The translations under genes and the position numbers were made by a program. Under the pieces are notes generated by a model. That model made no database searches and was not told where the DNA came from. It saw only the letters and a program-made list of their open reading frames with translations. From an uncultured Actinomycetes bacterium (GTDB taxonomy: Bacteria; Actinomycetota; UBA4738; HRBIN12), in the NCBI GenBank assembly GCA_963776425.1, contig CAVZMG010000002.1:729820-793819 (forward strand): a DNA stretch of 64,000 nt, in the 5' to 3' direction. Below are positions 37,970-62,942 of this stretch, in pieces. Numbering within the stretch: position 1 is the first letter of the stretch; every line of letters starts with the position of its first letter.

Positions 37970-38632
37970 ATGCCGCGCGAAGACATCGATGGTGGCTGGT
38001 CGATCGAGCCGGACCCGGACGGGCACCTGCACGCGTACGTGTTCATCGATCACACGGATAGCAAGATCTCGAGCGTCCTGTCGGATGTCGCCAAGTCCTA
38101 CAGGAGAGATGCGTTCCCGCGGGTCAGGTGGGCGGGATCGGTGATCGGCGACTACCGCGCGCTCATGCATATCGAAGTGGATGATCCGGACGATCTCGAT
38201 AGCCTCCATGAGTTCCTCGACGAGGATCTGTGGGAGAAAGGCGTCCACTGCCAGACCGCCATGAGCCTCGCGGTCATCAACAAGAAGGGAACGAAGAAGG
38301 ACACCCCGGACGTCCTGGCGCTCGTCGCGATCAAGACCGAGTTCGGCAAGACGATGGACGTCGCGAAGGCGTTGGCGATCGTGGACCAAGAGATGGACTT
38401 CGCTTGGTTCAACGGCGCGTCGATCCTGAACGGCCAGATCGACATCCTGCTGCAGCTGAACGCCGACTCCGTCACCCAGCAGCAGGAGCGGCTCTTCTTG
38501 GACGAGGGCACCGCGCGGATCCTCGGCGACATCCCTGGCATCGCCTCGACGTCGACGGCTATCGCGGAAGGGGCCCGGGGGCCTTGGAGTGGGCCGTTCC
38601 CGCCCGAGTGGGAGCGACCCCGGGGTTCCTAG
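37970..38632 (+). CDS. Hypothetical protein with two tandem Lrp/AsnC RAM-like domains
   Basis: HAYVFI...VIGDYRAL and LALVAIKTEFGK...LNGQIDIL...IPGIASTST each resemble the RAM protein at 32907-33140; GGGAGGGAG RBS. Confidence 0.65.
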   Translation: MPREDIDGGWSIEPDPDGHLHAYVFIDHTDSKISSVLSDVAKSYRRDAFPRVRWAGSVIGDYRALMHIEVDDPDDLDSLHEFLDEDLWEKGVHCQTAMSLAVINKKGTKKDTPDVLALVAIKTEFGKTMDVAKALAIVDQEMDFAWFNGASILNGQIDILLQLNADSVTQQQERLFLDEGTARILGDIPGIASTSTAIAEGARGPWSGPFPPEWERPRGS

Positions 38633-41600
38633 CCGAGTGCGATGAGGCGCTCGCGCGCCTGACGCGCGCTCGCGAGGTTCTCCTTGCGGTCATACGCATC
38701 GATCGCTCGTTGGAACGCATCCTTCGCATCCGATGTGCGTCCGGCCGCGAGGAGCACCTCGGCGAGGTGAACGAGGGCATCGGCCTGGAGGTCGAGGAAC
38801 CCCGTGGGGCGGATCAGCTCGATGGCCTCGCGTGCGAGCGTCTCGGCTTCCTCGGGCTCGCCGCGGCTCGCGAGCACACGCGCCTTCACGCAGCGCCAGC
38901 CCACCTGTTGCTCGAGGTCGTACACGTTCGCGCCCTTCGCGATCTCCTCGGCGAGCGCCTCCGCCTCGTCGAACCGACCGAGCCTGCACGAGAGGTGGGA
39001 CAGATCCGTGGCGGCCGAGACCGCGTTCACGGTGTCGTGCTGGCCCCGGAAGAAGAGGTAGCCGGCCCGTATCCCGCGCTCCGCCTCGTCCAACTTCCCC
39101 TCGGCCAGCGCGACCAACCCCTCTACCCCCGAGACGGCGGCCAGCCAGCGGCGCTGTCCGAGGTCCTCGAAGACGCCGCGTGAGAACGCCACGTGACCCC
39201 GGGCCGCGTCGAAGCGTTCTCGCATCGCGAGGATGATCGCCATCTCGAGCCGGCAGGTGGCTTGGGCCATCCGCTCGCCATCGAGCTCGTCGATCAGCGC
39301 TCGGAGTCGCTCCTCGGCGCTCGAGCACGGGGTGGCGCCGAGCACCAGGGCTTGGCCGACGTAGCTCGCCGCGAGAGGAACGGTGCGCCAATCCTCCACG
39401 TCTCGGGCGAGGAACAGCGCCCGCTCCGAGGTCTGGAGCATCTCGTCCGCCGACCCGGTGAGCCAGTCGCATGTGGCCAGGACGGTCAACGCACCCGCCA
39501 GCCGTCTCCCGTCGCCGAGCAGCTCGAAGGTGGACGTGGCGTCCAACGCCTGCGCGCGGAAGACCTCGAGCCTCGTTCCGCGTGGGTCGATCAGCAGGTT
39601 GAGCTCCGCTCTGCGAAGCTCGGCCCACGTCTCGAGCGGGCGATCCCCGGATGCCCGCGCGATCGGCAGCAGCTCGTCGAGCCTCGCGATGCACTGTTCG
39701 ATATCGCCAGCGAAGTAGAAGCTCTCCGTCAGGTCCGCGAGCAGTTGGCCGCGCTCGAGCGAGTCCTTCGGGATCAAGGCCGCGGCTCTGCGGAGGAGGT
39801 TCGCGCTCGCGCGCATGTCGCCGCGCGCGAGCGCGCGGCGACCGGCGGACGCCAGATGGGAGCCCGCCCGCGAGCCGAGCGCGCGGGCGTGGTCGTCGGG
39901 CGGACCCAGCTCTCCGAGGTATCGTCGGGCCTGCTCGAGGTGGTACCCGATGAACTCCTCGTACTCCTCGAGGCGCCCACCCGCCCTGCCCTCGAGCCAT
40001 CCGGCGAACCGCTCGTGCAACTCGGCTCGCGTCTGCTTCGACAAGGACTCGTACGCGGCGTCGCGGATGAGGATGTGCCGGAACCGATGCAGACCGCCCC
40101 CGAGCTCGCCGGAGCGGAAGGGCTGGAGCAGCTCCTTGCGGGCGAGAGATGCGAGGTGCACTTCGACCTCCGCCTCGATCTGGGCTGGCAGGAGCGCCGC
40201 GAGTGCCGCGGACGAGAATTCGTTTCCGATCACCGCCGCCCGCGCGATCACCGAGTGTTCGTCGCGCGTCAATCGATCCAGTCTCGCGGCGAGAAGCGCG
40301 GAGATCGTCGGGGGGATCGCGACCTTCGTGAGATCGTCGGCGGGCACCCACCGATCTCCCTCCTGCTCCAGCAGCCCGTCGTCGATCAGCATCGAGAGGA
40401 TCTCCTCGACGAACAACGGGTTGCCGCCGGCCACCTCGACGATGTGCTCACGCTCGCGTGGCGCCAGCTCGGCGCTCCCGAGGAGGTTCCGCACCAGGGC
40501 GTCGCCGTCTTCGCTGCGCAGCGGTTCGAGCAGGAGCGACGTGGCGTTCAGCTTGCCCCCGCCCCAAGACCGGTTCGTCTCCAAGAAGTCCGGACGGGCC
40601 AAACACAGGAGCATCATCGGCACATCCCTGGACCACTCAGCGATGTGCTCGATGACCTCGAGGAACGTCGGCTCGCCCCACTGGATGTCGTCGAACACCA
40701 GCACGAGCGGGCGTCGACGGGCGAGCGCCTCGAAGAACGTGCGGATCGCCCAGAAGGTCTCCTCGGGCGCGGCGGTGCCGGTCCCACCGATCCCGATGGC
40801 CTGCGAGATGCGCTGCGCGACCAGGGGCGCGTCCTCGGTCGTGAGGAGGCCGGCGATCTTCGCGCGAGCCTGCTCCACCGTGTCCTCATCCGCGAGACCG
40901 GCGGCCTGCGTTGCCACCTCGGTGATCGGCCAGAACGTGATCCCTTCCCCGTAGGCGAGACAACGCCCGAGGTACGAGGTGGCACGATCGTTCGCCCACG
41001 CGAGGAGTTCGTCGACGAGCCGAGACTTCCCGACCCCGGCAGCACCGAGGATCGTGACCATCTGACATCGGCGGCCGTCGAGCATCCGTTCGAAGGCGTC
41101 TCGCAGCAGCGCCGTCTCGCGCTCGCGATCGACGAACGGCGAGTCCTGCCGCCGCGTGTGCCCCGCGGCCCCGGGGATGACGGAGAGCAGGCGGAAGGCG
41201 CGGACGTTCCCCAATCCCTTCAGCTCGACGAGCTCGACCGGCTCCACCGTGACCGCATCGCGGACCAGGCGGTGCGTGTCGTTCCCGAGCAGGATGGTGC
41301 CCGGCTGGGCGGCGCCCTCCAGGCGGGAGGCGAGGATCACCGGTTCTCCTGAAACGAACGACTGATCACCGATCGGGTCGCCCGCGACGACCTCGCCGGA
41401 GTTGACGCCGATCCGGTTGCGGAGCCGGACGCCCCAATCCCGCTCCAGCTCCGCGTTCAACACGTCGAGCGCATCCTGCATCTCCATGGCCGCGCGCACG
41501 GCTCGAAGGGCGTCGTCTTCGTGCAGGGTCGGAACGCCGAAGACCGCCATCACGGCATCCCCGATGAACTTCTCGACCGTGCCGCCGTGCCGCTCGATGA

Positions 41601-41817
41601 CGGTCCGGGACTCTTCGAAGTAGCGCGTCACGACCTTGCGGAACGACTCGGCGTCGAGCCTCGACGCGAGCGGCGTGGAATCCTCCAGGTCGCAGAAGAC
41701 GATGGTGACGAGCCGCCGCGATTCCTCGGTGGGTGACGCACGGAGCGACGATCCGCACGTGGAACAGAACCTGGCGTGGTCCGGGTTCTGGGTCAAGCAG
41801 GCGGCACAGGTCTGCAT
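38629..41817 (-). CDS. Zn-ribbon + class III adenylate cyclase + STAND/AAA ATPase + TPR-like protein
   Basis: CAAC...CSTC; IVFCDLEDST, VEKFIGDAVMAVFG, IGVNSGE; GAAGVGKS, VFDDIQW, GGNPLF, FRHILIRDAAY. Confidence 0.93.
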   Translation of the reverse strand: MQTCAACLTQNPDHARFCSTCGSSLRASPTEESRRLVTIVFCDLEDSTPLASRLDAESFRKVVTRYFEESRTVIERHGGTVEKFIGDAVMAVFGVPTLHEDDALRAVRAAMEMQDALDVLNAELERDWGVRLRNRIGVNSGEVVAGDPIGDQSFVSGEPVILASRLEGAAQPGTILLGNDTHRLVRDAVTVEPVELVELKGLGNVRAFRLLSVIPGAAGHTRRQDSPFVDRERETALLRDAFERMLDGRRCQMVTILGAAGVGKSRLVDELLAWANDRATSYLGRCLAYGEGITFWPITEVATQAAGLADEDTVEQARAKIAGLLTTEDAPLVAQRISQAIGIGGTGTAAPEETFWAIRTFFEALARRRPLVLVFDDIQWGEPTFLEVIEHIAEWSRDVPMMLLCLARPDFLETNRSWGGGKLNATSLLLEPLRSEDGDALVRNLLGSAELAPREREHIVEVAGGNPLFVEEILSMLIDDGLLEQEGDRWVPADDLTKVAIPPTISALLAARLDRLTRDEHSVIARAAVIGNEFSSAALAALLPAQIEAEVEVHLASLARKELLQPFRSGELGGGLHRFRHILIRDAAYESLSKQTRAELHERFAGWLEGRAGGRLEEYEEFIGYHLEQARRYLGELGPPDDHARALGSRAGSHLASAGRRALARGDMRASANLLRRAAALIPKDSLERGQLLADLTESFYFAGDIEQCIARLDELLPIARASGDRPLETWAELRRAELNLLIDPRGTRLEVFRAQALDATSTFELLGDGRRLAGALTVLATCDWLTGSADEMLQTSERALFLARDVEDWRTVPLAASYVGQALVLGATPCSSAEERLRALIDELDGERMAQATCRLEMAIILAMRERFDAARGHVAFSRGVFEDLGQRRWLAAVSGVEGLVALAEGKLDEAERGIRAGYLFFRGQHDTVNAVSAATDLSHLSCRLGRFDEAEALAEEIAKGANVYDLEQQVGWRCVKARVLASRGEPEEAETLAREAIELIRPTGFLDLQADALVHLAEVLLAAGRTSDAKDAFQRAIDAYDRKENLASARQARERLIALG

Positions 41818-41839
41818 ATCCCGAAGCCTAGACGGGTGA

Positions 41840-42385
41840 TCAGCCGAGCGCGGCGTCGATCCCCCGGTTGAGCGCGGCCTGTGAGAGCTGGCCGTCCCAG
41901 GTGGAGACGACCTGTCCGCCCGCGTCATAGAAGACGGTGACAGGCTGTCCGATCATCCCGAGCGAATCTCGGATCGCGCCCGACGGATCGAACACGCTCG
42001 GGTACGTCACGCGTTGCTCGGCCAGGAACGAACGTGCCCCGCCGAGCGAGTCCAGGATGTCGACGCCGAGGAACTGCAACCGGTCCCCATAGGTGGAGTG
42101 CGCCGACCGGAGGAGCGGTGACTCCGCCTTGCACGGTCCGCACCACGATGCCCAGACGTTGACGACGACCGGCGTACCGCGGAGCTGGGTCAGCAGCCGC
42201 TGATAGGTGTCCACATCGAACAGCGGCAGGGCCGCGACCGACGTCGGCAGCAGCGCGGCCGTCGTCGCGTTGCTCGCGGGCGCGCCATCGAGATCCGCCG
42301 GGGTCGCGTCGGAGGAGGCTCCATGCGCGCAGCTCATCAGGACCAACGAGATCGCGAAGAGGAAGGAACGGCGGGTCGCCATCAT
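41840..42385 (-). CDS. TlpA-family thiol-disulfide oxidoreductase lipoprotein
   Basis: LMSC lipobox; VNVWASWCGPCKAE, GQP. Confidence 0.9.
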   Translation of the reverse strand: MMATRRSFLFAISLVLMSCAHGASSDATPADLDGAPASNATTAALLPTSVAALPLFDVDTYQRLLTQLRGTPVVVNVWASWCGPCKAESPLLRSAHSTYGDRLQFLGVDILDSLGGARSFLAEQRVTYPSVFDPSGAIRDSLGMIGQPVTVFYDAGGQVVSTWDGQLSQAALNRGIDAALG

Positions 42386-53013: not shown

Positions 53014-53394
53014 ATGGCGACCATCCTGATCGTCGAGGACCACCCCACGATGCGCGACGCGATGCGCTTGGTGCTCGAAGAGGACGGGCACGATGTGGAG
53101 GAAGCCTCTGATGGTGAGACCGGTCTCGACGCCGTACGGGCGCACCCTCCCGATCTCGTCCTGCTGGATCTGAACATCCCCGTCCTGTCGGGCGCGGACG
53201 TGCTCGAGGCGCTTCGCGCGGATCCGGCGACCGATGCGGTGCTCGTCGTGGTCGTGACCGCGACCGGCGAGGAGGGCCGTGCACGCTCCCTCGCTCAGGG
53301 GGCGGATGACTACATCACGAAGCCGTTCAGCCCGCTCGCCCTGCTCCGGACAGTGGAGCGGGTGCTTCGAGGCTCCGCGACGTCGGGATCGTGA
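53014..53394 (+). CDS. Single-domain response regulator (receiver)
   Basis: ILIVEDH, LVLLD, VTA, YITKPF. Confidence 0.92.
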   Translation: MATILIVEDHPTMRDAMRLVLEEDGHDVEEASDGETGLDAVRAHPPDLVLLDLNIPVLSGADVLEALRADPATDAVLVVVVTATGEEGRARSLAQGADDYITKPFSPLALLRTVERVLRGSATSGS

Positions 53395-55153
53395 CGGCGA
53401 ACGCGGCTCCGAGGCCCGGCTCGGACTCGACGGAGATCCATCCCCCCATCGCCTGCGTGAGCTGACGAGCGATGTAGAGCCCGAGCCCGGCACCCTCCGA
53501 ATGCGCGGCCGCGGAGCCCGTCTGGTGGAACCGATCGAAGATGATGTCCAATTCAGCCGGCGGGATGCCGGGCCCTCGGTCGCGGATCGCGAACGTGACC
53601 GTCCCGGTCGAATAGGACCCGGCCGCGAGATGCACGGGTTTGTCCGGAGGGGAGAACTTCAACGCGTTCATCAGCAGGTTGGTGAGGATCTGCATCAGCC
53701 GTTGCGGATCCACGACCAGCTCCTCTGGCATGCCCGGCTCTTCGATCACCGTGACGCGGCTCGCGAGTTCACCGAGCCCCTGCCGGACGCCCACCAACAG
53801 GTCGGCGGTCCTGATCGACTCGGGCACGAACGAGAGCTTGCCGGCCTCGATACGGGAGATCAGCAGCAGGTCCTCGACGAGCCTGATCAACCGATCGGTC
53901 TGCAGGTGGATGATCCCGAGGTACTCCTCGACCTCGCTGGGCGAGAGCTCGCCCTGTCGTCGACGCAGGGCGTCCACGAATCCGCGCACCGCGGTGAGCG
54001 GCGTCCGGAGCTCATGGCTCGTGATCGCGACGAAGTCCGACTTGAGCTCGTCCAGCTCGCGGAGTCGGGCGAGGGTCTCCTCCTGCCGAGCGCGCAGCCG
54101 GGTCGCCTGGACCACGAGCGAGACCTGATCCGCGAGCCGACCCAGAAGCAGCATCCGGTCCCGGTCGAGGGCGCCGGGCTCACTCGCGCGTTCGTGCAGG
54201 ATCCCGATCACACGATCGCCCGCGCGGAGCGGCACCTCGGCCTCGGACCGGTCCGCGCGCAGGTTCGCACGAGAGAAGTCCGGGGCCGTCCCGAACGGCT
54301 CGCTCCCGGCGACGAACCGCGTGCCGCGATCGTAGCCCGGATCGCCGTAGACGCCGGCCGAGACCAACTGCTCCGACCCGTCTTCGCCGGGCTCGAGCAG
54401 CAACACCCCCAGCGACTCGCATCCGAGCTCCCGACCCACCGCTTCAGCGATCGCCTGCATGCCCTCAGCGGGATCCTCGGCCGCCACGCCTGCCAGGATC
54501 GCCGTGTGGAACGCGGAAAGGTCGCGGCGTGCCTCAGCCTCACGCCGCGCGGCCTCCTCCGCCTGTTGCGCCGCCTCTTCGGCCTCGGCCGTCCGTTCGT
54601 TCGCCCGATCTCGTTCCCGGCCGAGGGAGCTCGCGAACATGCCCGCGGCGAGCGCGATGACCGCAGCCATCCCGACCCGGAAGGAGACGGCCGAGCCTAC
54701 GAACCGATACGTGGGGAACTGTTCGGCCAGGTACAGCTCGCGTGCGATCTCGGAGACGAGCAGGATCGGAAGAGGAACGAGTGCGCCCACCAGCCCGTAC
54801 CGCATGGCCCCCTCGATCGGGAGGAGGTAGGCGATGACCCAGGCGGGATCCGAGGGTTTGTGGGCGGCGACCCACACCCACACCACGATCACCACGATGT
54901 CCAGTGCGAACGCGATCGCTCCGACCCATCGGAGTTCGGACGTGCTGGTCGCCCGGCGGCAGATCCGCGTGAACGACAGGTTGCCGATCGCCAAGCCGAC
55001 CGTGAGGACGGCACCGAGCGGTGCGGCGAAGCGTTGGGCGTTCGGGTCGATCGCCTCGACCACGGTCTGCACCGTGCCGTACGCGACGAGGAGCCAGCGG
55101 AGCCGCACCAGCGCGAGCTCCAGGTGCCTCGTCTGTTCCAGGTCCCGCTTCAT
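53327..55153 (-). CDS. Membrane sensor histidine kinase with GAF-like domain
   Basis: Several N-terminal TMs; SHELRTPLT, NLLMNALKF, DRGPGI, GLGL. Confidence 0.93.
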   Translation of the reverse strand: MKRDLEQTRHLELALVRLRWLLVAYGTVQTVVEAIDPNAQRFAAPLGAVLTVGLAIGNLSFTRICRRATSTSELRWVGAIAFALDIVVIVVWVWVAAHKPSDPAWVIAYLLPIEGAMRYGLVGALVPLPILLVSEIARELYLAEQFPTYRFVGSAVSFRVGMAAVIALAAGMFASSLGRERDRANERTAEAEEAAQQAEEAARREAEARRDLSAFHTAILAGVAAEDPAEGMQAIAEAVGRELGCESLGVLLLEPGEDGSEQLVSAGVYGDPGYDRGTRFVAGSEPFGTAPDFSRANLRADRSEAEVPLRAGDRVIGILHERASEPGALDRDRMLLLGRLADQVSLVVQATRLRARQEETLARLRELDELKSDFVAITSHELRTPLTAVRGFVDALRRRQGELSPSEVEEYLGIIHLQTDRLIRLVEDLLLISRIEAGKLSFVPESIRTADLLVGVRQGLGELASRVTVIEEPGMPEELVVDPQRLMQILTNLLMNALKFSPPDKPVHLAAGSYSTGTVTFAIRDRGPGIPPAELDIIFDRFHQTGSAAAHSEGAGLGLYIARQLTQAMGGWISVESEPGLGAAFAVTIPTSRSLEAPAPLSGAGRAG

Positions 55154-55227
55154 GGACGCCTTGCCCCCGGCCCTCGGTACAATCGGCCAGCCGGGCTTTC
55201 CGGCGCACGGCCGCACCCTACGTAGAC

Positions 55228-57383: not shown

Positions 57384-57902
57384 GTGGCCGAGCCGACCGT
57401 CGTCGTCGGCAAGATCACGAAGGCCCACGGTCTCCGCGGTGAGGTCGTCGTGTTGGTCCTGTCGGACAACCCGGATCGGTTCATCGCGGGTGCGTCGGTA
57501 TTCCTGGAGGATGGGCGTGAGCTCGGCGTCGGCGCCGTCCGTGCGAATGGCGGGCGGCTGTTGGTCTCGTTCCACGGGGTCGAAGACCGGACGCAGGCGG
57601 AGCGTCTGCGGGGCGCCACGCTCGTGGTGCCTACGTCCATGCTGCCGGCCTTGCCACCGGGAGAGTATTGGCCTCACCGATTGATCGGTTGCCGGGTCGT
57701 CTCGGAATCGGGACGGTCGTTGGGCGCGATCGCCGACGTCATCTCGACCCCCGCGAACGACCTCTGGGCCGCGGTCGACGAACAGGGTGTCGAGATCCTC
57801 ATCCCCGCGCTGAAGGAGTTCGTCCTGGACGTGAACGTCGACGAACGTCTCGTGCGGGTCATCGATCACGTGGGTCTGACCGTCCCGGAAGACGAGGGTT
57901 GA
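57384..57902 (+). CDS. rimM: Ribosome maturation factor RimM
   Basis: VGKITKAHGLRGEV, DRTQAERLRG, EYW, ILIP. Confidence 0.94.
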   Translation: MAEPTVVVGKITKAHGLRGEVVVLVLSDNPDRFIAGASVFLEDGRELGVGAVRANGGRLLVSFHGVEDRTQAERLRGATLVVPTSMLPALPPGEYWPHRLIGCRVVSESGRSLGAIADVISTPANDLWAAVDEQGVEILIPALKEFVLDVNVDERLVRVIDHVGLTVPEDEG

Positions 57903-57923
57903 AGGAGAGGCTCGCTCTTCGGG

Positions 57924-58631
57924 CTACAGGCCGGCGATCTTCGCCAATCCGTCGACCTTCTTCAGGACGTAGCGCCGGCCGTCCTTCTCCACGAGCCCGC
58001 GTCGCTGGAACTCGCTGAGCACGCGGGTCACGTTCTCCCGGCTGCCGCCGCAGAGGCTGGCGAGGTCGACGTGCGTGACGGTCGGGACGACCACGCCATC
58101 GTCCGGAAGATCGTCCAGGCTCGGGGTGACCATCTGGAGGAGGCGCTTCGCCACCCGGCCCTTGAGATCGAGGAAGAGCAGGTCGTCGACGAGCGATTGG
58201 TCCGCGTGAACCTGCCTGGCCAGCGCCCGAAGCACGTTCCGGGCGGCCGCCGGCTCCTGCGTGAGGAACGCCACGAAATCCTCGGAATGGACGACCGCGA
58301 CGGTGACATCCTCCAGGGCGAGCGCGCTCGCGGTCCGGTCGATGTCGCCCAACACGCCCAGCTCGCCGAGGAACTGCGGGGTGTCGAGCGTGGCATGGAG
58401 GACCCGGCTGCCGTTCGCCGCCACCGAGCTGATCTCGACCCGGCCATCCACGAGGAAGAAGACATCCGGCGCCGGGTCGCCCTGGTGGCAGAGGTAGGTG
58501 TTGCGGCGGTAGTGGCGGAGGAGGCAGCCTTCGGCGAATCCGGCCACGGCTGACCGCGACACGCCTGCGAGGTATGGAGAATCGCCGAGCGCCCGCTCGA
58601 GGGCCGTCGTCGCGGCGGAAGCCTTCGCCAT
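57924..58631 (-). CDS. Crp/Fnr-family transcriptional regulator
   Basis: cNMP domain QGDP...FLGELGVLGDIDRTASA; HTH THVDLASLCGGSRENVTRVLSEF; TAGGCT -10 7 nt before ATG. Confidence 0.93.
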   Translation of the reverse strand: MAKASAATTALERALGDSPYLAGVSRSAVAGFAEGCLLRHYRRNTYLCHQGDPAPDVFFLVDGRVEISSVAANGSRVLHATLDTPQFLGELGVLGDIDRTASALALEDVTVAVVHSEDFVAFLTQEPAAARNVLRALARQVHADQSLVDDLLFLDLKGRVAKRLLQMVTPSLDDLPDDGVVVPTVTHVDLASLCGGSRENVTRVLSEFQRRGLVEKDGRRYVLKKVDGLAKIAGL

Positions 58632-58670
58632 CCCGCGTAGCCTAGTCGGGTCGGGGAAGGGGCACCAACG

Positions 58671-58701
58671 GAACGAGCCCGGTCGAGGACCGGGCTCGTT
58701 C
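58671..58701 (-). terminator. Hairpin downstream of peptide 1
   Basis: Perfect 14-bp stem GAACGAGCCCGGTC-GAG-GACCGGGCTCGTTC. Confidence 0.75.
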
Positions 58702-58716
58702 GTCGGCACGAAGGCG

Positions 58717-58851
58717 CTACTTGGCGACCTTCTTCCTGCTGACCTTCTTGCGTGAGACCTTCTTGAGGCTCTTGCGCTCGGCAGCGTGACTCGTTGCGGT
58801 CGTCGAGGCCTCAGCTTTGGGCTTCTTCGGTGAGATCTTCTTCTCGGCCAT
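58717..58851 (-). CDS. 44-aa Lys-rich repeat peptide 1: MAEKKISPKKPKAEASTTATSHAAERKSLKKVSRKKVSRKKVAK
   Basis: Translated by hand (below the ORF-track cutoff); RBS GGGAGGTGG; paralog of peptide 2; own hairpin. Confidence 0.85.
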   Translation of the reverse strand: MAEKKISPKKPKAEASTTATSHAAERKSLKKVSRKKVSRKKVAK

Positions 58852-58913
58852 CTGGATTCCACCTCCCCCCTCGTTCCATGCGTTGCATCGTCACCCACGC
58901 TCACGTTCCCGGC

Positions 58914-58952
58914 GGTGCTGCTCGTCGCGGATCGGCTGTGTCGTCCATCACA
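58914..58952. promoter_or_regulatory. CRP-type box(es) upstream of peptide 1
   Basis: TGTGT-cgtcca-TCACA at 58937-58952; degenerate GGTGC-tgctcg-TCGCG at 58914-58929. Confidence 0.6.
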
Positions 58953-58966
58953 TCACCGAGATGACA

Positions 58967-58992
58967 GATGGACCCGGCGAACCGGGCCCATC
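58967..58992 (-). terminator. Hairpin downstream of peptide 2
   Basis: Minus strand GATGGGCCCGG-TTCG-CCGGGTCCATC (UUCG loop, one G-U pair). Confidence 0.7.
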
Positions 58993-59018
58993 CAGGGGTG
59001 TGGCATATGCGGAGTGTC

Positions 59019-59156
59019 CTAGCGGGACAGCTTCTTGCGGCTGATCTTCTTGTGGCTGACCTTCTTCATGGTCTGCTTCTTGGTCACGCGAGCGGCGGGC
59101 TCCTCAGCGTTCCGGGCACCCTCCGGGGCCTTCGGCGAGATCTTCTTGTCTGCCAT
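59019..59156 (-). CDS. 45-aa Lys-rich repeat peptide 2: MADKKISPKAPEGARNAEEPAARVTKKQTMKKVSHKKISRKKLSR
   Basis: RBS GGAGGAGGTG; C-terminal part of ORF 59019..59312; paralog of peptide 1. Confidence 0.85.
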   Translation of the reverse strand: MADKKISPKAPEGARNAEEPAARVTKKQTMKKVSHKKISRKKLSR

Positions 59157-59249
59157 CTGGTTCACCTCCTCCGTCGCTCTCCGACCCTCTCGGGTCTCAC
59201 AGGGCCGTCTTCCGATGCCCGCATCATGCCGCAGGTCGTCGTGGCGGGT

Positions 59250-59335
59250 GGTGTCGCGCGTCACCAAGCGTTGGGTGCCCTCCATCACAAGAGGTTTTGT
59301 GACGTCCGACACGTCAGGTTGTGACGTGCGTCACA
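59250..59335. promoter_or_regulatory. Array of four CRP-type boxes upstream of peptide 2
   Basis: GGTGT-cgcgcg-TCACC (59250), GGTGC-cctcca-TCACA (59274), TGTGA-cgtccg-ACACG (59298), perfect TGTGA-cgtgcg-TCACA (59320); spacing 24/24/22 bp. Confidence 0.75.
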
Positions 59336-59543
59336 CATCGAGCTCCGGCAGATCGACGGGGTCGGGCCGGGGCGAGCAGGCGCCGCACGAGAGGGCGTCC
59401 TCCACCACGATCGCCCGCGATGTCTCCGTCGTCTTGAAGAGCTCCAGGATGTACGGCTGGGTCTGCGCATGGTCCTCGCAGACGCCCCGGCCGCAGAACC
59501 GACAGATGCCGACGGCGGTCCGGCGGCAATGCCAACAATCCAT
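59331..59543 (-). CDS. Small Zn-finger-like protein (DUF2180-like)
   Basis: MDCWHCRRTAVGICRFCGRGVCEDH...CGAC; GAGGGG RBS. Confidence 0.8.
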   Translation of the reverse strand: MDCWHCRRTAVGICRFCGRGVCEDHAQTQPYILELFKTTETSRAIVVEDALSCGACSPRPDPVDLPELDV

Positions 59544-59571
59544 CCTCAGGTCCCCTCTCGCGATGGCGGCG

Positions 59572-61851
59572 CTAATGCTGCCACGTTCTGCCCGATGCCG
59601 ACTTGAACGTGCCGCGCCGGAACGCATCGGCGATGACGGCGTCGAACCCCTCGCGATCCAAGCGGAAGGCTCGCATCGGCGTCCGCGCGACGATCGTCGC
59701 GGTCCGGGGCGAAGACCGCAGGAGGGCGATCTCTCCGAAGTAGGCCCCAGGGCCGAGCGTCGCGATGTGCTCCCCATCGCGGATCACATCGGCCTGGCCC
59801 GAACGGATCGCGTAGAAGGCGTCGGCGTCCTCTCCCTGCGTGATCAGTTCCCGGCCCGGGGCCGCGGTGATCCACCCGCCGTGCTCGAGCAGCACCGAGA
59901 GCGGTGCCGAGCCGAGCCCGGCGAACACCGGCAGTTCCCGGAGCTCCTGGAGTGTCTGCATGGTTGGGGCGAACTCGGGTGCATGGATCGAGTCGGCGAG
60001 GAGTCGATCGAACGTGCCCTTGTCCACCTCGAAGAGCTCGGTCTCATCGATCGCGCGTGCGGTCGCGGATCGCGGCGCCGCCTCGAGCAGACCGAGCTCC
60101 CCGAACGAGTCGCCGCGCGATAGGACCCGCAGGATCTGCGTGTCGCCGGTGTCCGGATCCTCTTCCTCGATCCCCACCCGACCGCGGCGAACGACGTAGA
60201 AACCCGTCGGCCGGTCGCCCTGGCGGAACACGGGCTGCAGGGCTCGGACGCTGCGCAGCGTGACACGGCCGGCCAGGTCGTTCAGGACGTCCACCGGGAG
60301 GTCGTCGAACGCGGGCAGCCCGTCGATCAGCTCGGCCGCCTCCACGCGCCACTTGGATTCGGTGCGGAACTGGATCCGTCGCCAGATCGCCTGGATCCGC
60401 CGGCCGACGACCCGGCCGAGCGCGATCGCGCCTCGCAGGGCAGGACCGAGGAGGAACAGGCTGAGCAAGATGAGAAGGAGTCGGGAGATCACGCCCCCGC
60501 TCCACAACGCGGAGATCAATCCGCCGAAGATCTCTTGCCAGAAGAAATATGCGGCTTTGAGCGACACGACCGTGAAGATGATCCCGACGATGGCGTAGCC
60601 GCCGAGCCCAAGTTCCTGCGGGGTGAGCCGCTCCCTCGTGCGCAGCTTGTGCCAGAGGTCGCGCTGGATGAACGCGAGGGACCGCGGCCGGAGATCCGGC
60701 ACCTGGATCAGATCCGACAAGATCCAATAGCCGTCCAGCTCCAACAGTGGGATGAGGTTGAGGAAGATCACCAGATAGTTGAGGACCGCGAACTTGTACA
60801 GCACCCCAGAGATCGCCGAATGGGGAAGGAGCAGGAGGTACAGGGAGGCGAGTCCGGCGAGGACGAGCTCGGCGAACGGGCCCGCGAACGACTGGACGAT
60901 CCGCTTGCCTCGATCCAGCATCAGCCCGTCCGAAGCCTCGACGAAGAACGCCGGTGAGCCGAAGTAGATCATGAAGCCCGCGCTCTTCACCCGCCGGTCG
61001 TAGTGGGTGAGCACGACCGCGTGACCGAGCTCGTGCGCGAACGTGAGCACGAACGAGAGCCCCAGGAGGATCAGCGATTCCGCCGGCGCCGAGGACCGGC
61101 CGAGGCTGAACCGTCCGCTCTGCTCCACGACGACGAACGCGACGAACCCACCGACCGCGATGACCCCGGCGACACTCGCCCCCGCTGGCGTGAAGACCCA
61201 GCGGAGGAGATGCTGGTACCACCACTTGACCAAACGATCCGCGCCGCTCCAGTCGATGGAGAGCGTTTTCGCGAAGGTACGAAGCTTCCGACGAACGGGT
61301 GACGCCGGGTCCAGATGCTCCCTGAGTGATTCCTCAACGTCTGGCGGATGGGGATCCAGGAAGCCTCCGGTCTGCAGGGCCATCACCAAGCCGGTGGCGG
61401 CGCCGGCGTCCAGATCGCCCTCTTCGTCCATCCGGTCGACGATGATGTCCGCCACGGTGCGAGTGCCGTCCATCAGCTCCAGGAGATCCGCCTCCCACGG
61501 CTCGAGCCGGAAGAACAACAGGGCGCGCGGGTTCGCGGCCATCGCATAGTCGTTGCCCCACCGCAGCGGGAATCGCTTGACCTCCACGTCATCGGCGAGC
61601 TTCGGACGGAAGCGCGCACCGTCGGTCCGTTCATCGAGGAGGTCCCAGAGCACCCCTTCCTCGGCAGGGGGCACGCGGAGGGCGGCGCCGACCGCCGCCC
61701 ACACGTCGATATCGCCGCGGGGGGCTGCCAATCGCGCGCTAAGGACCTGATCGATCCGCACGCGTCGTCGCCCGCGCGATCTGATCGCGCCGATCCCGAC
61801 CGCAGCCGCGGCCATGAGCGCCACGAGCCCCCACTGTCCGTCGATCTGCAT
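59572..61851 (-). CDS. RRE/PqqD-like domain + M50 intramembrane Zn metalloprotease + two cNMP-binding domains
   Basis: LLELMDGTRTVADI...LQTGGFL (wHTH); HELGH, FAGP, NLIPLLELDGYWIL (M50); FGELGLLEAAPRSAT and FGEIALLRSSPRTAT (cNMP cassettes). Confidence 0.88.
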   Translation of the reverse strand: MQIDGQWGLVALMAAAAVGIGAIRSRGRRRVRIDQVLSARLAAPRGDIDVWAAVGAALRVPPAEEGVLWDLLDERTDGARFRPKLADDVEVKRFPLRWGNDYAMAANPRALLFFRLEPWEADLLELMDGTRTVADIIVDRMDEEGDLDAGAATGLVMALQTGGFLDPHPPDVEESLREHLDPASPVRRKLRTFAKTLSIDWSGADRLVKWWYQHLLRWVFTPAGASVAGVIAVGGFVAFVVVEQSGRFSLGRSSAPAESLILLGLSFVLTFAHELGHAVVLTHYDRRVKSAGFMIYFGSPAFFVEASDGLMLDRGKRIVQSFAGPFAELVLAGLASLYLLLLPHSAISGVLYKFAVLNYLVIFLNLIPLLELDGYWILSDLIQVPDLRPRSLAFIQRDLWHKLRTRERLTPQELGLGGYAIVGIIFTVVSLKAAYFFWQEIFGGLISALWSGGVISRLLLILLSLFLLGPALRGAIALGRVVGRRIQAIWRRIQFRTESKWRVEAAELIDGLPAFDDLPVDVLNDLAGRVTLRSVRALQPVFRQGDRPTGFYVVRRGRVGIEEEDPDTGDTQILRVLSRGDSFGELGLLEAAPRSATARAIDETELFEVDKGTFDRLLADSIHAPEFAPTMQTLQELRELPVFAGLGSAPLSVLLEHGGWITAAPGRELITQGEDADAFYAIRSGQADVIRDGEHIATLGPGAYFGEIALLRSSPRTATIVARTPMRAFRLDREGFDAVIADAFRRGTFKSASGRTWQH

Positions 61852-61895
61852 CCCTCCCGACGCCGGACGCTAGCGCAAGCTGGCGGGCACCGTCG

Positions 61896-61956
61896 CGTGA
61901 CGGCCGTCACCCCGGGTGCGTGACGCATCCGTCGGTCGCGCGTGTCGCTCGTCATC
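61896..61956. promoter_or_regulatory. CRP-type boxes in the divergent promoter region
   Basis: CGTGA-cggccg-TCACC (61896), half-site CGTGACG (61919), CGTGT-cgctcg-TCATC (61941). Confidence 0.65.
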
Positions 61957-62014
61957 GGTGAGACCGGACGGTCGTTCTACGGTTCTGCTATCGGGCGAAC
62001 GGGAGGTGGCAGTG

Positions 62015-62221
62015 ATGCTGACAGGAGCGATGGCGAGGGAACAGATCCAGGACCGGGTTCGCGCAGGTGAGATGGCGCGGAGCGCCCGGATGGCACGCGG
62101 TCGCCGCGTCCGCGACCCGAGGAACGCCGTCCGATCGGTGGCGAGCGGGATGTTAGCCACCGTGTTCTCGATGCAGCGGACGGCGGCGGCAGCCCCGCGA
62201 GCGAGGACCACAACGGTCTGA
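62015..62221 (+). CDS. Small basic hypothetical protein (MLTGAMAREQIQDRVRAGE...)
   Basis: GGGAGGTGG RBS; TACGGT -10 at 61978. Confidence 0.6.
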   Translation: MLTGAMAREQIQDRVRAGEMARSARMARGRRVRDPRNAVRSVASGMLATVFSMQRTAAAAPRARTTTV

Positions 62222-62246
62222 GCGCCGCCGCTGCTAGCCTCGCGGC

Positions 62247-62942
62247 GTGCGGGTCGACATCTTCACGATCTTCCCCGGCATCTTCGAGGGTCCACTGCGG
62301 GAGAGCCTCCTGGGGCGGGCGATCGACGCGGGGATCCTCGATGTTCGCCTCCACGACATCCGCGACCACGCCGGCAACCGCCATCGGCAGGTGGATGACG
62401 AACCGTTCGGCGGCGGACCCGGGATGGTGATGAAGCCTGAACCCATCTTCGCTGCGGTCGGATCGCTCGGACGGACGAGGGGCCGCACGATCCTCCTGTC
62501 TCCCGCGGGTCGCCGGCTCGATCAGGCTCTCGTCCGCGAACTGGCATCAGAGCCGTGGATCGTGCTCGTCTGCGGCCGGTACGAGGGTGTCGACGAGCGG
62601 GTGGTCGAGGGGTTGCCGGCGGAAGAGGTATCCATCGGCGACTACGTGCTCTCGGGTGGAGAGGTTCCCGCCCTCGTGATGCTCGAGGCGATCTCGCGCC
62701 TCGTTCCCGGCGTGATCGGGACCGACGAGTCGCACGAGCAGGATTCGTTCGGCGCCGAGGGCATCTTGGATCATCCGCACTACACGCGCCCGCGGCGCTT
62801 CGAGGGTATGGACGTCCCCGAGGTGCTCCTGTCGGGCGATCACGCCGAGATCGAGCGGTGGCGACGTGCCGAAGCGCTCGAGAAGACCCGTCGCGTGCGG
62901 CCCGACCTGCTGGGAGGCCCGGACGCGCCATCGGGACCGTGA
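62247..62942 (+). CDS. trmD: tRNA (guanine-N1)-methyltransferase
   Basis: [42 protein letters not shown]. Confidence 0.97.

Follow-up and report, generated by a model that had tools for sequence, protein, structure and literature searches.

The known controls on site-2 proteases are cleavage beforehand at site 1, PDZ domains, inhibitor proteins and CBS domains of debated role; the PDZ domains of RseP/Rip1-type enzymes are extracytoplasmic and gate on site-1-cleaved membrane proteins. We know of no site-2 protease under direct cyclic-nucleotide control. Here we analyse a gene that may encode one, at 59572..61851 (minus strand) of a 64,000-nucleotide stretch of contig CAVZMG010000002.1 from an uncultured Actinomycetes bacterium, the whole of which we call the window. 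Its product joins a domain like the RiPP recognition element (RRE; RiPP, peptide that is ribosomally synthesized and then modified post-translationally), an M50 (site-2) protease core and two domains of the type that binds cyclic nucleoside monophosphates (cNMP). According to the accessible part of one source, the site-2 protease SpoIVFB has six transmembrane (TM) segments, a re-entrant antiparallel β-loop between TM2 and TM3, an interdomain linker and a C-terminal CBS domain (PMC11486902). An RRE fused to a site-2 protease is likewise already known: the daptide protease MpaP carries an RRE domain at the N terminus of an intramembrane site-2 protease, and the precursors of its pathway bear an ELExMEAP motif and a C-terminal Thr, as given in the accessible part of that report (Ren et al. 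2023, 10.1101/2023.03.08.531785).

Computing domain identities, motif conservation, a predicted RRE fold, cassette conservation, Crp boxes and gene co-occurrence, we find that the fusion is real, well conserved and, in the literature searched, uncharacterized. It is an RRE-bearing site-2 protease with cNMP sensor domains, set in a four-part cassette with a zinc-finger open reading frame (ORF), one or two short basic peptides and a Crp-like regulator. No paper on an M50–cNMP fusion was found, and neither the cNMP coupling nor the gene cassette was found in print; subscription journals and the supplements to the daptide and RRE-Finder papers lay outside the coverage of this search.

Architecture of the protease

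We aligned the protease with 43 homologues (44 sequences in all, down to 28% identity; alignment A1) and modelled it at full length with AlphaFold (predicted local distance difference test score, pLDDT, 82.8; predicted template-modelling score, pTM, 0.70). The motifs quoted in a first-pass annotation of the window (HELGH, NLIPLLELDG, two phosphate-binding cassettes and an N-terminal segment beginning RPKL) are all present in one intact ORF of 759 residues, laid out as follows.

59572..61851, minus strand: whole ORF, 759 aa, ATG start; N-terminal anchor, RRE, M50 core, linker helix and two cNMP-binding domains
61777..61839, minus strand: hydrophobic N-terminal segment, residues 5–25, followed by RSRGRRR (Kyte–Doolittle scan; low pLDDT in the model)
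61354..61602, minus strand: predicted RRE/PqqD-type winged helix, residues 84–166, three strands then three helices, net charge −9 (domain model)
60418..61209, minus strand: M50/site-2 protease core, residues 215–478, six TM helices (Pfam PF02163, NF041824, model and hydropathy)
61021..61035, minus strand: HELGH, zinc-binding and catalytic, residues 273–277 (translation and alignment)
60730..60759, minus strand: NLIPLLELDG, residues 365–374, with D373 as third zinc ligand (translation and alignment)
60310..60417, minus strand: Arg-rich helical linker, residues 479–514, from TM6 to the first cNMP domain (model helix 454–510)
59977..60309, minus strand: cNMP-binding domain A (CNB-A), residues 515–625 (Pfam PF00027 and alignment to the regulatory subunit of protein kinase A, PKA-R)
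59614..59964, minus strand: cNMP-binding domain B (CNB-B), residues 630–746 (Pfam PF00027 and PKA-R alignment)
60061..60105, minus strand: phosphate-binding cassette A, FGELGLLEAAPRSAT, residues 583–597 (translation)
59695..59739, minus strand: phosphate-binding cassette B, FGEIALLRSSPRTAT, residues 705–719 (translation)

The site-2 assignment of the annotation stands. Peptidase_M50 (PF02163) matches in two stretches at 32.1 bits against a cut-off of 27.2 (E 9.5e-8), or at 38.1 bits in a whole-genome scan that combines neighbouring in-frame matches. H273, E274, H277, P368, D373 and G374 are invariant across the 44 sequences, and N365 is at least 90% conserved. The model, in agreement with a hydropathy scan, places six core TM helices at 222–245, 255–283, 314–341, 348–365 with 373–382, 411–451 and 454–510, and a predicted β-hairpin at residues 290–305 between TM2 and TM3 (strands 290–296 and 299–305). 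HELGH falls within the model helix 255–283 and the hydrophobic segment 254–279. The last helix, 454–510, is single and long, TM6 extending into the cytoplasm in the model. Because six TM helices separate the N-terminal and C-terminal domains, both lie on the same side of the membrane, and that side must be the cytoplasm if the CNB domains are to meet cyclic nucleotides. The RRE and CNB domains are thus predicted to be cytoplasmic, and sequence and model together point to a cytoplasm-facing intramembrane zinc metalloprotease of M50 type, for which proteolysis is predicted. The host genome has another M50 gene elsewhere, a canonical one that scores 170 bits to PF02163. When the A1 profile was searched against PDB sequences, M50 structures were absent among the 60 matches listed, all of which were cNMP proteins.

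The N-terminal TM anchor claimed in the annotation is present in this protein but is a clade-specific trait and not one of the family: in A1, 12 of the 19 close homologues have a hydrophobic N terminus (Kyte–Doolittle), and none of the 25 distant ones does.

The N-terminal domain

The annotation had also read a built-in RRE in the segment RPKL...DYAMAANP...FFRLEPWEADLLELMDGTRTVADI...LQTGGFL (residues 82–165), naming the lack of a PqqD fold there as what would speak against it. We folded residues 60–205 alone, with Val60 modelled as Met, from 49 homologous segments of related loci (alignment A2). The resulting model (pLDDT 81.7) has the RRE fold, in the order β-β-β-α-α-α (strands 90–94, 102–107 and 112–116; helices 118–124, 133–144 and 149–161). 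Compared with 48,161 PDB representatives using VIA-align, it comes closest to B1 proteins of lasso-peptide pathways whose structures include a leader peptide (6jx3_B, Z 10.3, root mean square deviation 2.6, 82 residues aligned; 5v1u_A, Z 10.2); PqqD (5sxy) scores Z 9.8, and TigE, ThcOx, PbtF-RRE, MibB, CteB, LynD and MccB come next. The top Foldseek matches are of the same protein kind, TbiB1 with leader first (best E 2.3e-3).

At the level of sequence, residues 113–464 match NF041824 (daptide RRE-peptidase) over positions 28–370 of 379, with 166.2 bits and E 1.2e-48, and a faint match to PaaA-like_N, an RRE-type family, covers residues 118–139. Given the fold and the homology to NF041824, the RRE reading holds: by both measures, one a predicted model and the other a profile match, the N-terminal domain is an RRE/PqqD-type winged helix, and leader-peptide binding is predicted for it.

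Tandem cNMP-binding domains

The C-terminal half was described as arranged like the tandem domains of a PKA regulatory subunit, and both sequence and fold searches bear this out. Pfam cNMP_binding (PF00027) matches in two stretches with E 7.4e-42 (141.7 bits, cut-off 27.5). The A1 profile spans CNB-A and CNB-B of PKA RI-α in one stretch (E about 1e-58), and those of protein kinase G (PKG) likewise; Foldseek with the full model is topped by the tandem domains of PKA-R and PKG (E about 1e-18). Both phosphate-binding cassettes carry Gly-Glu and Arg-[ST]-Ala, residues that we take, from PKA and CRP structures, to contact the ligand. Across the 44 sequences G584, G706 and E707 are invariant, with E585, R594, A596, R716 and A718 at least 90% conserved. 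The CNB domains are predicted to bind a nucleotide and may gate proteolysis.

Judged from its predicted domains, cNMP signalling is strikingly expanded in the host genome, which holds 59 matches to class III adenylate/guanylate cyclase domains in 3.18 Mb. One of them lies inside the window, in a 1,099-aa cyclase–AAA_16–TPR (STAND-like) protein at 38632..41928 (minus strand).

Distribution

The annotation called the fusion unusual. It is uncommon among described site-2 proteases, yet it belongs to a large conserved family that is abundant in databases. A word-indexed search returned at least 1,390 proteins at E ≤0.001 among 8,000 scored candidates; the best 120 of those are 672–793 aa long, mostly carry both Pfam families and are named by NCBI 'cyclic nucleotide-binding domain-containing protein'. 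An exhaustive search of representatives gave 712 clusters at E ≤1e-30. Some variants keep the domain order but carry a long spacer (about 1,000–1,150 aa), an FHA domain or an AhpC domain, and others have the cNMP domains placed first; one variant cluster holds a Zixibacteria record. All 80 named loci come from uncultured Actinomycetota-type metagenome-assembled genomes (MAGs), and a strong orthologue (E 1e-59 or better) was found in 33 of 301 genomes sampled across the phylum. Four soil DNA runs of one study contain 0.07–0.11 of the locus words, and no RNA sequencing run was listed as holding the locus.

A conserved four-part cassette

Downstream of the protease, on the same strand, lie a zinc-finger ORF, two basic peptide ORFs and a Crp-like gene, interspersed with CRP-type sites.

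59331..59543, minus strand: Cys-rich zinc-finger ORF, 70 aa, tail PRPDPVDLPELDV; start 28 nt after the protease stop codon
59320..59335, no strand: perfect palindrome of CRP type, TGTGACGTGCGTCACA, which overlaps the stop codon of the zinc-finger ORF
59274..59313, no strand: two further CRP-like sites, 2 mismatches each, spaced 22–24 nt, in an array with the perfect box
59019..59156, minus strand: basic peptide copy 1, 45 aa, net charge +11, MADKKISPKAP...KKVSHKKISRKKLSR (family alignment A3)
58937..58952, no strand: CRP-like site with one mismatch, preceding peptide copy 2 by about 93 nt
58717..58851, minus strand: basic peptide copy 2, 44 aa, MAEKKISPKKPK...KKVSRKKVSRKKVAK (profile A3, E 1.4e-10)
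57924..58631, minus strand: Crp-like regulator, 235 aa from the chosen Met, its start codon being inferred (cNMP domain and helix-turn-helix)

Searching the neighbouring window proteins against related loci by tblastn, we found the zinc-finger ORF after the protease, on the same strand, in all 90 loci (not all of them distinct, with 73 distinct zinc-finger sequences among 86 extracted), its start 9–46 nt past the protease stop. It is the better conserved of the pair (68–94% identity across loci, against 53–86% for the protease). Seven Cys and one His are conserved (C3, C6, C14, C17, C21, H25, C53 and C56), as is the C-terminal tail PRPDPxDLPELD. Its family assignment is borderline: DUF2180 (PF09947, cut-off 22.2) gives 23.6 bits for a long, 148-aa reading and 22.0 bits for the 70-aa protein, covering only the first 28 residues of the ORF, and a C5HCH match is also borderline. 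ESM Atlas neighbours are 70-aa clusters in which 12–28% of members have DUF2180.

The protease and the zinc-finger ORF occur together. Among 41 relatives, the ORF is present in exactly the 33 with a protease-length match and absent from the 8 with only cNMP-level matches; in the phylum sample, of the 33 genomes that hold a strong orthologue 32 also carry the ORF, the exception (G299) being 62% complete. These tallies include three unpublished genomes (G009, G029 and G037), without which they become 30 with both and 8 with neither of 38, and 31 of 32. In one genome of the same genus (G005:C5:767600-770030), the protease is in pieces (1 TGA) and the zinc-finger ORF in two, which may reflect either joint decay of the pair or an assembly error.

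Between the zinc-finger ORF and the Crp-like gene sits the peptide ORF, 36–56 aa across loci, with the pattern [MV]A[DE]KK[IV]xPK...AATRVTKK... followed by K/R-rich repeats. It was found in 77 of 78 distinct loci (59 by the strict pattern and 18 as I-to-V variants), with L021 lacking an intact copy; two copies occur in the window and in six other loci. GGAGGTG precedes each of the window's peptide ORFs, and a Shine–Dalgarno-like core lies upstream in 63 of 69 cases. On the 3' side of each there is a strong GC-rich inverted repeat (58670-58705 and 58975-59005, minus strand; for example GAACGAGCCCGG...CCGGGCTCGTTC), that after copy 2 including a perfect 12-bp inverted repeat. A terminator scan of 57800-62400 gave one site, not above shuffled sequences; it missed the peptide-ORF hairpins because they have no T-run. 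Over the same interval a sigma-70 promoter scan found no sites and an Rfam scan no matches at E ≤1. The peptides match no Pfam or NCBIfam family at E ≤10, their best ESM Atlas score (0.78) is uninformative, and profile A3 found no copies in the host genome beyond the two of the cassette.

A locus from a different family (L094; G131:C116, 5486-5833), whose protease is 51% identical, holds a zinc-finger ORF, the protease, two tandem 52-aa peptides and a Crp-like gene. These peptides (MSKKIEPKDPAGK...) start MSKKIEPKDP, continue with an RR-rich amphipathic middle and have an acidic end; they share only the N-terminal motif with the window's peptides, the C-terminal part being unrelated. A conserved N terminus with a replaceable remainder would, by analogy, be the behaviour of leader-plus-core peptides.

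The Crp-like regulator matches PF00027 (2e-19), HTH_Crp_2 (PF13545, 9.9e-15) and PF00325 (3.2e-7), and is present in 85 of the 90 loci, the five misses being at contig ends. Its phosphate-binding cassette GELGVLGDIDRTAS (GE...RTA) is intact, and its recognition helix SRENVTRVL presumably corresponds to R-E-x-x-x-R of Escherichia coli CRP. Orthology to that protein was rejected: the CRP equivalog NF008732 scores 80.3 bits against a cut-off of 266, and we call the regulator Crp-like.

CRP-type boxes concentrate around the peptide genes. The only two boxes with at most one mismatch in the 64-kb window are both upstream of peptide ORFs, and sites with at most two mismatches number 4 in 58600-59400 and 8 in the other 63.2 kb. 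Of 80 distinct loci, 48 have a perfect box at the place it occupies in the window, overlapping or adjoining the zinc-finger stop codon, while the remaining 894 kb of sequence from these loci contain 3; the GTGA-N6-TCAC core is found at this place in 75 of the 80, and two or more cores in 52. This placement implies that Crp controls the peptide genes, the protease being equipped with a sensor of its own. A Crp-type core (CGTGACGGCCGTCACC) also lies at window positions 61896-61911, about 45–60 nt upstream of the protease start codon. We considered it as a family feature and rejected it, finding its like in 6 of 75 distinct loci.

Around the cassette, rimM lies on the side of the Crp-like gene, and trmD, rplS and lepB on the other side. 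Since rimM, trmD and rplS flank it in only part of the loci, the cassette moves as a unit. Between ftsY and ffh, on the strand opposite to them, the window also encodes a 629-aa GAF–HisKA–HATPase histidine kinase (53330-55216, minus strand), in surroundings that are otherwise housekeeping (recG, rsmD, rpmF, fpg, smc, ftsY, ffh, rpsP and rimM).

A zinc-finger branch beside PrsW

Three genomes of the phylum sample hold a divergent zinc-finger homologue (45–48% identical) and no such protease. In G113 (L091; G113:C1, 4470-6213) it is directly downstream of a PrsW-family protease (PF13367, E 1.9e-22), and a 109-aa winged-helix ORF lies downstream of it in turn; G293 has the same arrangement, its PrsW-like ORF being recognized by motifs, and in G280 the two genes are divergent neighbours. 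Searching with the G113 protein gave 27 loci (L095–L121 with the L091 branch), from freshwater Actinomycetota and two Anaerolineae MAGs. PrsW adjoins in 25 of these: in 24 it lies just upstream on the same strand, whereas L119 has it on the opposite strand. Of the two loci without it, one extends no more than 33 bases upstream. The winged-helix ORF comes next in 23 of the 27. Together the three genes have the look of a conserved trio that has yet to be described. The PrsW loci showed neither a basic peptide nor a Crp box. The zinc-finger family therefore accompanies two unrelated intramembrane metalloproteases, M50 and PrsW, and the peptide tracks only the one that bears an RRE.

Between the stand-alone 109-aa winged helix and the fused RRE, hhalign detected no relation (probability 1.25%, E 0.042). 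Four records of this branch (L095, L096, L103 and L105) are titled Bifidobacterium breve or Bordetella parapertussis and have a zinc-finger ORF 77–99% identical to one from a freshwater actinobacterium, which suggests that these public records are mislabelled.

Interpretation

On balance we lean towards reading the cassette as built around a cNMP-gated, RRE-guided peptide-processing protease, with cNMP acting both on peptide transcription, through Crp, and on access to the active site, and with the zinc-finger protein as an obligate partner. One or more of the genome's many cyclases would raise cAMP or cGMP. The Crp-like regulator would then bind the TGTGA-N6-TCACA box array and alter transcription of the one or two basic peptide genes, while the same nucleotide, bound by the CNB domains of the protease, would shift the linker and TM6, thereby either opening up the active site or closing it off. 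Control of access in this way is the role suggested for the interdomain linker and CBS domain in SpoIVFB (PMC11486902). The acidic RRE (net charge −9) could dock the M-A-[DE]-K-K-[IV]-x-P-K motif of the basic peptide (+11), and the protease would cut the peptide, either activating or clearing it. The zinc-finger protein, expressed from the same operon, would serve the protease as adaptor, inhibitor or co-substrate. cAMP-type signals thus probably govern production as well as cleavage of the peptide; which protein is the substrate, and what the zinc-finger protein does, we infer from the cassette. The leader-like behaviour of the peptide fits this reading, the divergent locus L094 keeping the N-terminal motif only and the PrsW loci, without an RRE, being also without peptides.

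Several observations weigh against such a mechanism. For the RRE, no Foldseek match of the domain model reached E 0.001, and winged helices from outside RiPP pathways also rank high in VIA-align (Rv2067c, PKMT2 and NovN, Z 9–10). No family member reaches the Pfam PqqD (PF05402) cut-off of 23.4 bits: the window domain scores 14.1 bits and the best, the distant homologue P0162, 17.6 bits over profile positions 2–66 of 67, so that the domain is RRE-like by fold and outside the Pfam PqqD sequence family. Sub-threshold Pfam matches among 50 members are to PKMT_2nd in 36, PaaA-like_N in 12 and PqqD in 10. As RRE-like helices exist outside RiPP systems, and as PKMT_2nd rather than PqqD prevails among these matches, the fold does not prove peptide docking. 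For the peptides, a third-codon-position test of the ORF is partly circular, its sequences having been picked by protein motif, and they have no hydrophobic or membrane-associated segment, unlike classical site-2 protease substrates. A Crp-type core precedes the protease gene in only the six loci mentioned; Crp control is thus no general property of the protease operon. Finally, the zinc-finger ORF is tied more tightly to the protease than the peptides are and it adjoins PrsW where there is no peptide, so the zinc-finger protein could be the true substrate.

The same parts could form a feed-forward switch, in which one cNMP induces a leader-bearing cationic peptide by way of Crp and the box array and opens its RRE-guided protease by way of the PKA-R-like sensor domains. 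The zinc-finger protein, whose family pairs with M50 and PrsW enzymes alike, would be a dedicated general cofactor of intramembrane metalloproteases; this we put forward tentatively, as possible and no firmer than that.

That the zinc-finger protein is itself the target, a small regulator in the cytoplasm captured through the RRE or the linker and cleaved or released on cNMP binding, making the system a switch by regulated proteolysis with the peptides as Crp-regulated downstream effectors, seems to us rather unlikely. Its tight co-occurrence with the protease, the operonic look of the pair and the breakage of both genes in G005 would suit a target, as would the higher conservation of its ORF relative to the protease, its invariant tail, and the siting of a divergent branch beside PrsW (25 of 27 loci), where the basic peptide is missing. 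The protein is, however, acidic (−4) like the RRE and has no membrane segment, and a partner that is more conserved than its enzyme fits a stoichiometric subunit or inhibitor at least equally well. This explanation also leaves unaccounted for why a leader-like peptide tracks the RRE-bearing protease and not PrsW.

We find it improbable that this is a minimal RiPP-like or bacteriocin-like locus, making secreted cationic peptides from which the RRE–site-2 protease removes a leader, perhaps exporting the product as proposed for EpeP, with cNMP as the production switch. The closest characterized relatives are indeed RiPP leader peptidases (NF041824, 166 bits; NF058609, 47.5 bits; the accessible part of a review, PMC10885120). 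The peptide genes are tandem, each with its Shine–Dalgarno-like sequence and 3' hairpin, and pair a conserved N terminus with a variable, repeat-rich C terminus; the protease even shows a weak match to TIGR03896, a cNMP-domain protein of bacteriocin transport (30.4 bits, cut-off 161). Yet the cassette includes no modification enzymes, transporter or immunity gene, and, being single-copy, order-wide and beyond, and often placed within the rpsP–rimM–trmD–rplS housekeeping region, it is unlike a variable secondary-metabolite locus. The K/R-rich tails are of low complexity, and in many lineages they lack a hydrophobic face (as in TKRTTKRTTK), and the host genome has just the two cassette copies of the peptide.

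That the cNMP domains are dimerization or scaffold modules without nucleotide sensing, the protease being constitutive or otherwise regulated, is very improbable: CBS domains of related site-2 proteases are dispensable for cleavage in some assays, according to the accessible part of the source (PMC11486902), but in an alignment of 44 homologues that reaches down to 28% identity, Gly-Glu and Arg-[ST]-Ala either never vary or are at least 90% conserved, cyclase domains are matched 59 times in the genome, and a Crp-like regulator with Crp boxes is part of the cassette itself.

Should the cNMP domains gate the protease as we propose, this would be the first direct link of cAMP/cGMP signalling to intramembrane proteolysis. 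The cassette supplies the parts for testing it: a putative substrate bearing a leader motif, a possible partner protein, and a matching transcription factor along with the operator it would bind. That the zinc-finger family pairs with two unrelated intramembrane metalloproteases may point to an overlooked general accessory factor. For the hosts, uncultured soil Actinomycetota with very many cyclases, the cassette may be a concrete output pathway of their expanded signalling.

Comparison with known systems

The closest characterized relative is MpaP/DapP, the daptide leader peptidase, which has the same N-terminal RRE and M50 fusion in the accessible part of the report (10.1101/2023.03.08.531785). 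The protein described here has about 280 extra C-terminal residues with two cNMP domains, and the neighbouring peptides are unlike daptide precursors. We rejected both its membership of the daptide equivalog, its 166.2 bits to NF041824 lying below the 300-bit cut-off, and a daptide identity for the locus, with no DUF-RRE MpaB, dehydrogenase MpaC, aminotransferase MpaD, methyltransferase MpaM or ELExMEAP precursors nearby. NF058609 (YydH/LiaK) matches residues 260–384 with 47.5 bits, under its cut-off of 225. EpeP/YydH, TglG and TmoG are similar in being membrane M50 proteases that act on small ribosomal peptides encoded nearby; in the accessible part of the review these enzymes are without cNMP domains and their clusters include modification enzymes (PMC10885120).

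With SpoIVFB and mjS2P the protease shares a six-TM M50 core, a β-hairpin between TM2 and TM3 and a linker that follows TM6 and connects it to a regulatory domain of nucleotide-binding type in the cytoplasm, its linker (479–514) holding the position of the SpoIVFB interdomain linker as described in the accessible part of the source (PMC11486902). It differs in that a tandem cNMP pair replaces CBS and an N-terminal RRE is added; partners of the BofA or SpoIVFA type are absent here, and a soluble zinc-finger ORF adjoins instead. PDZ-bearing site-2 proteases of the RseP/Rip1 type resemble it in the M50 catalytic core and regulated substrate entry, the latter as given in the accessible part of the source (PMC11864173), whereas both accessory modules of this protease are predicted to be cytoplasmic. 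Among cNMP-responsive proteins, PKA-R and PKG are like it in that CNB-A and CNB-B align as one unit, and SthK in that a cNMP-binding domain is joined to the last TM helix through a helical linker. The protease has neither the kinase-inhibitor sequence nor the docking domain of PKA-R/PKG, and its output is a protease core in place of a kinase or, as in SthK, a pore.

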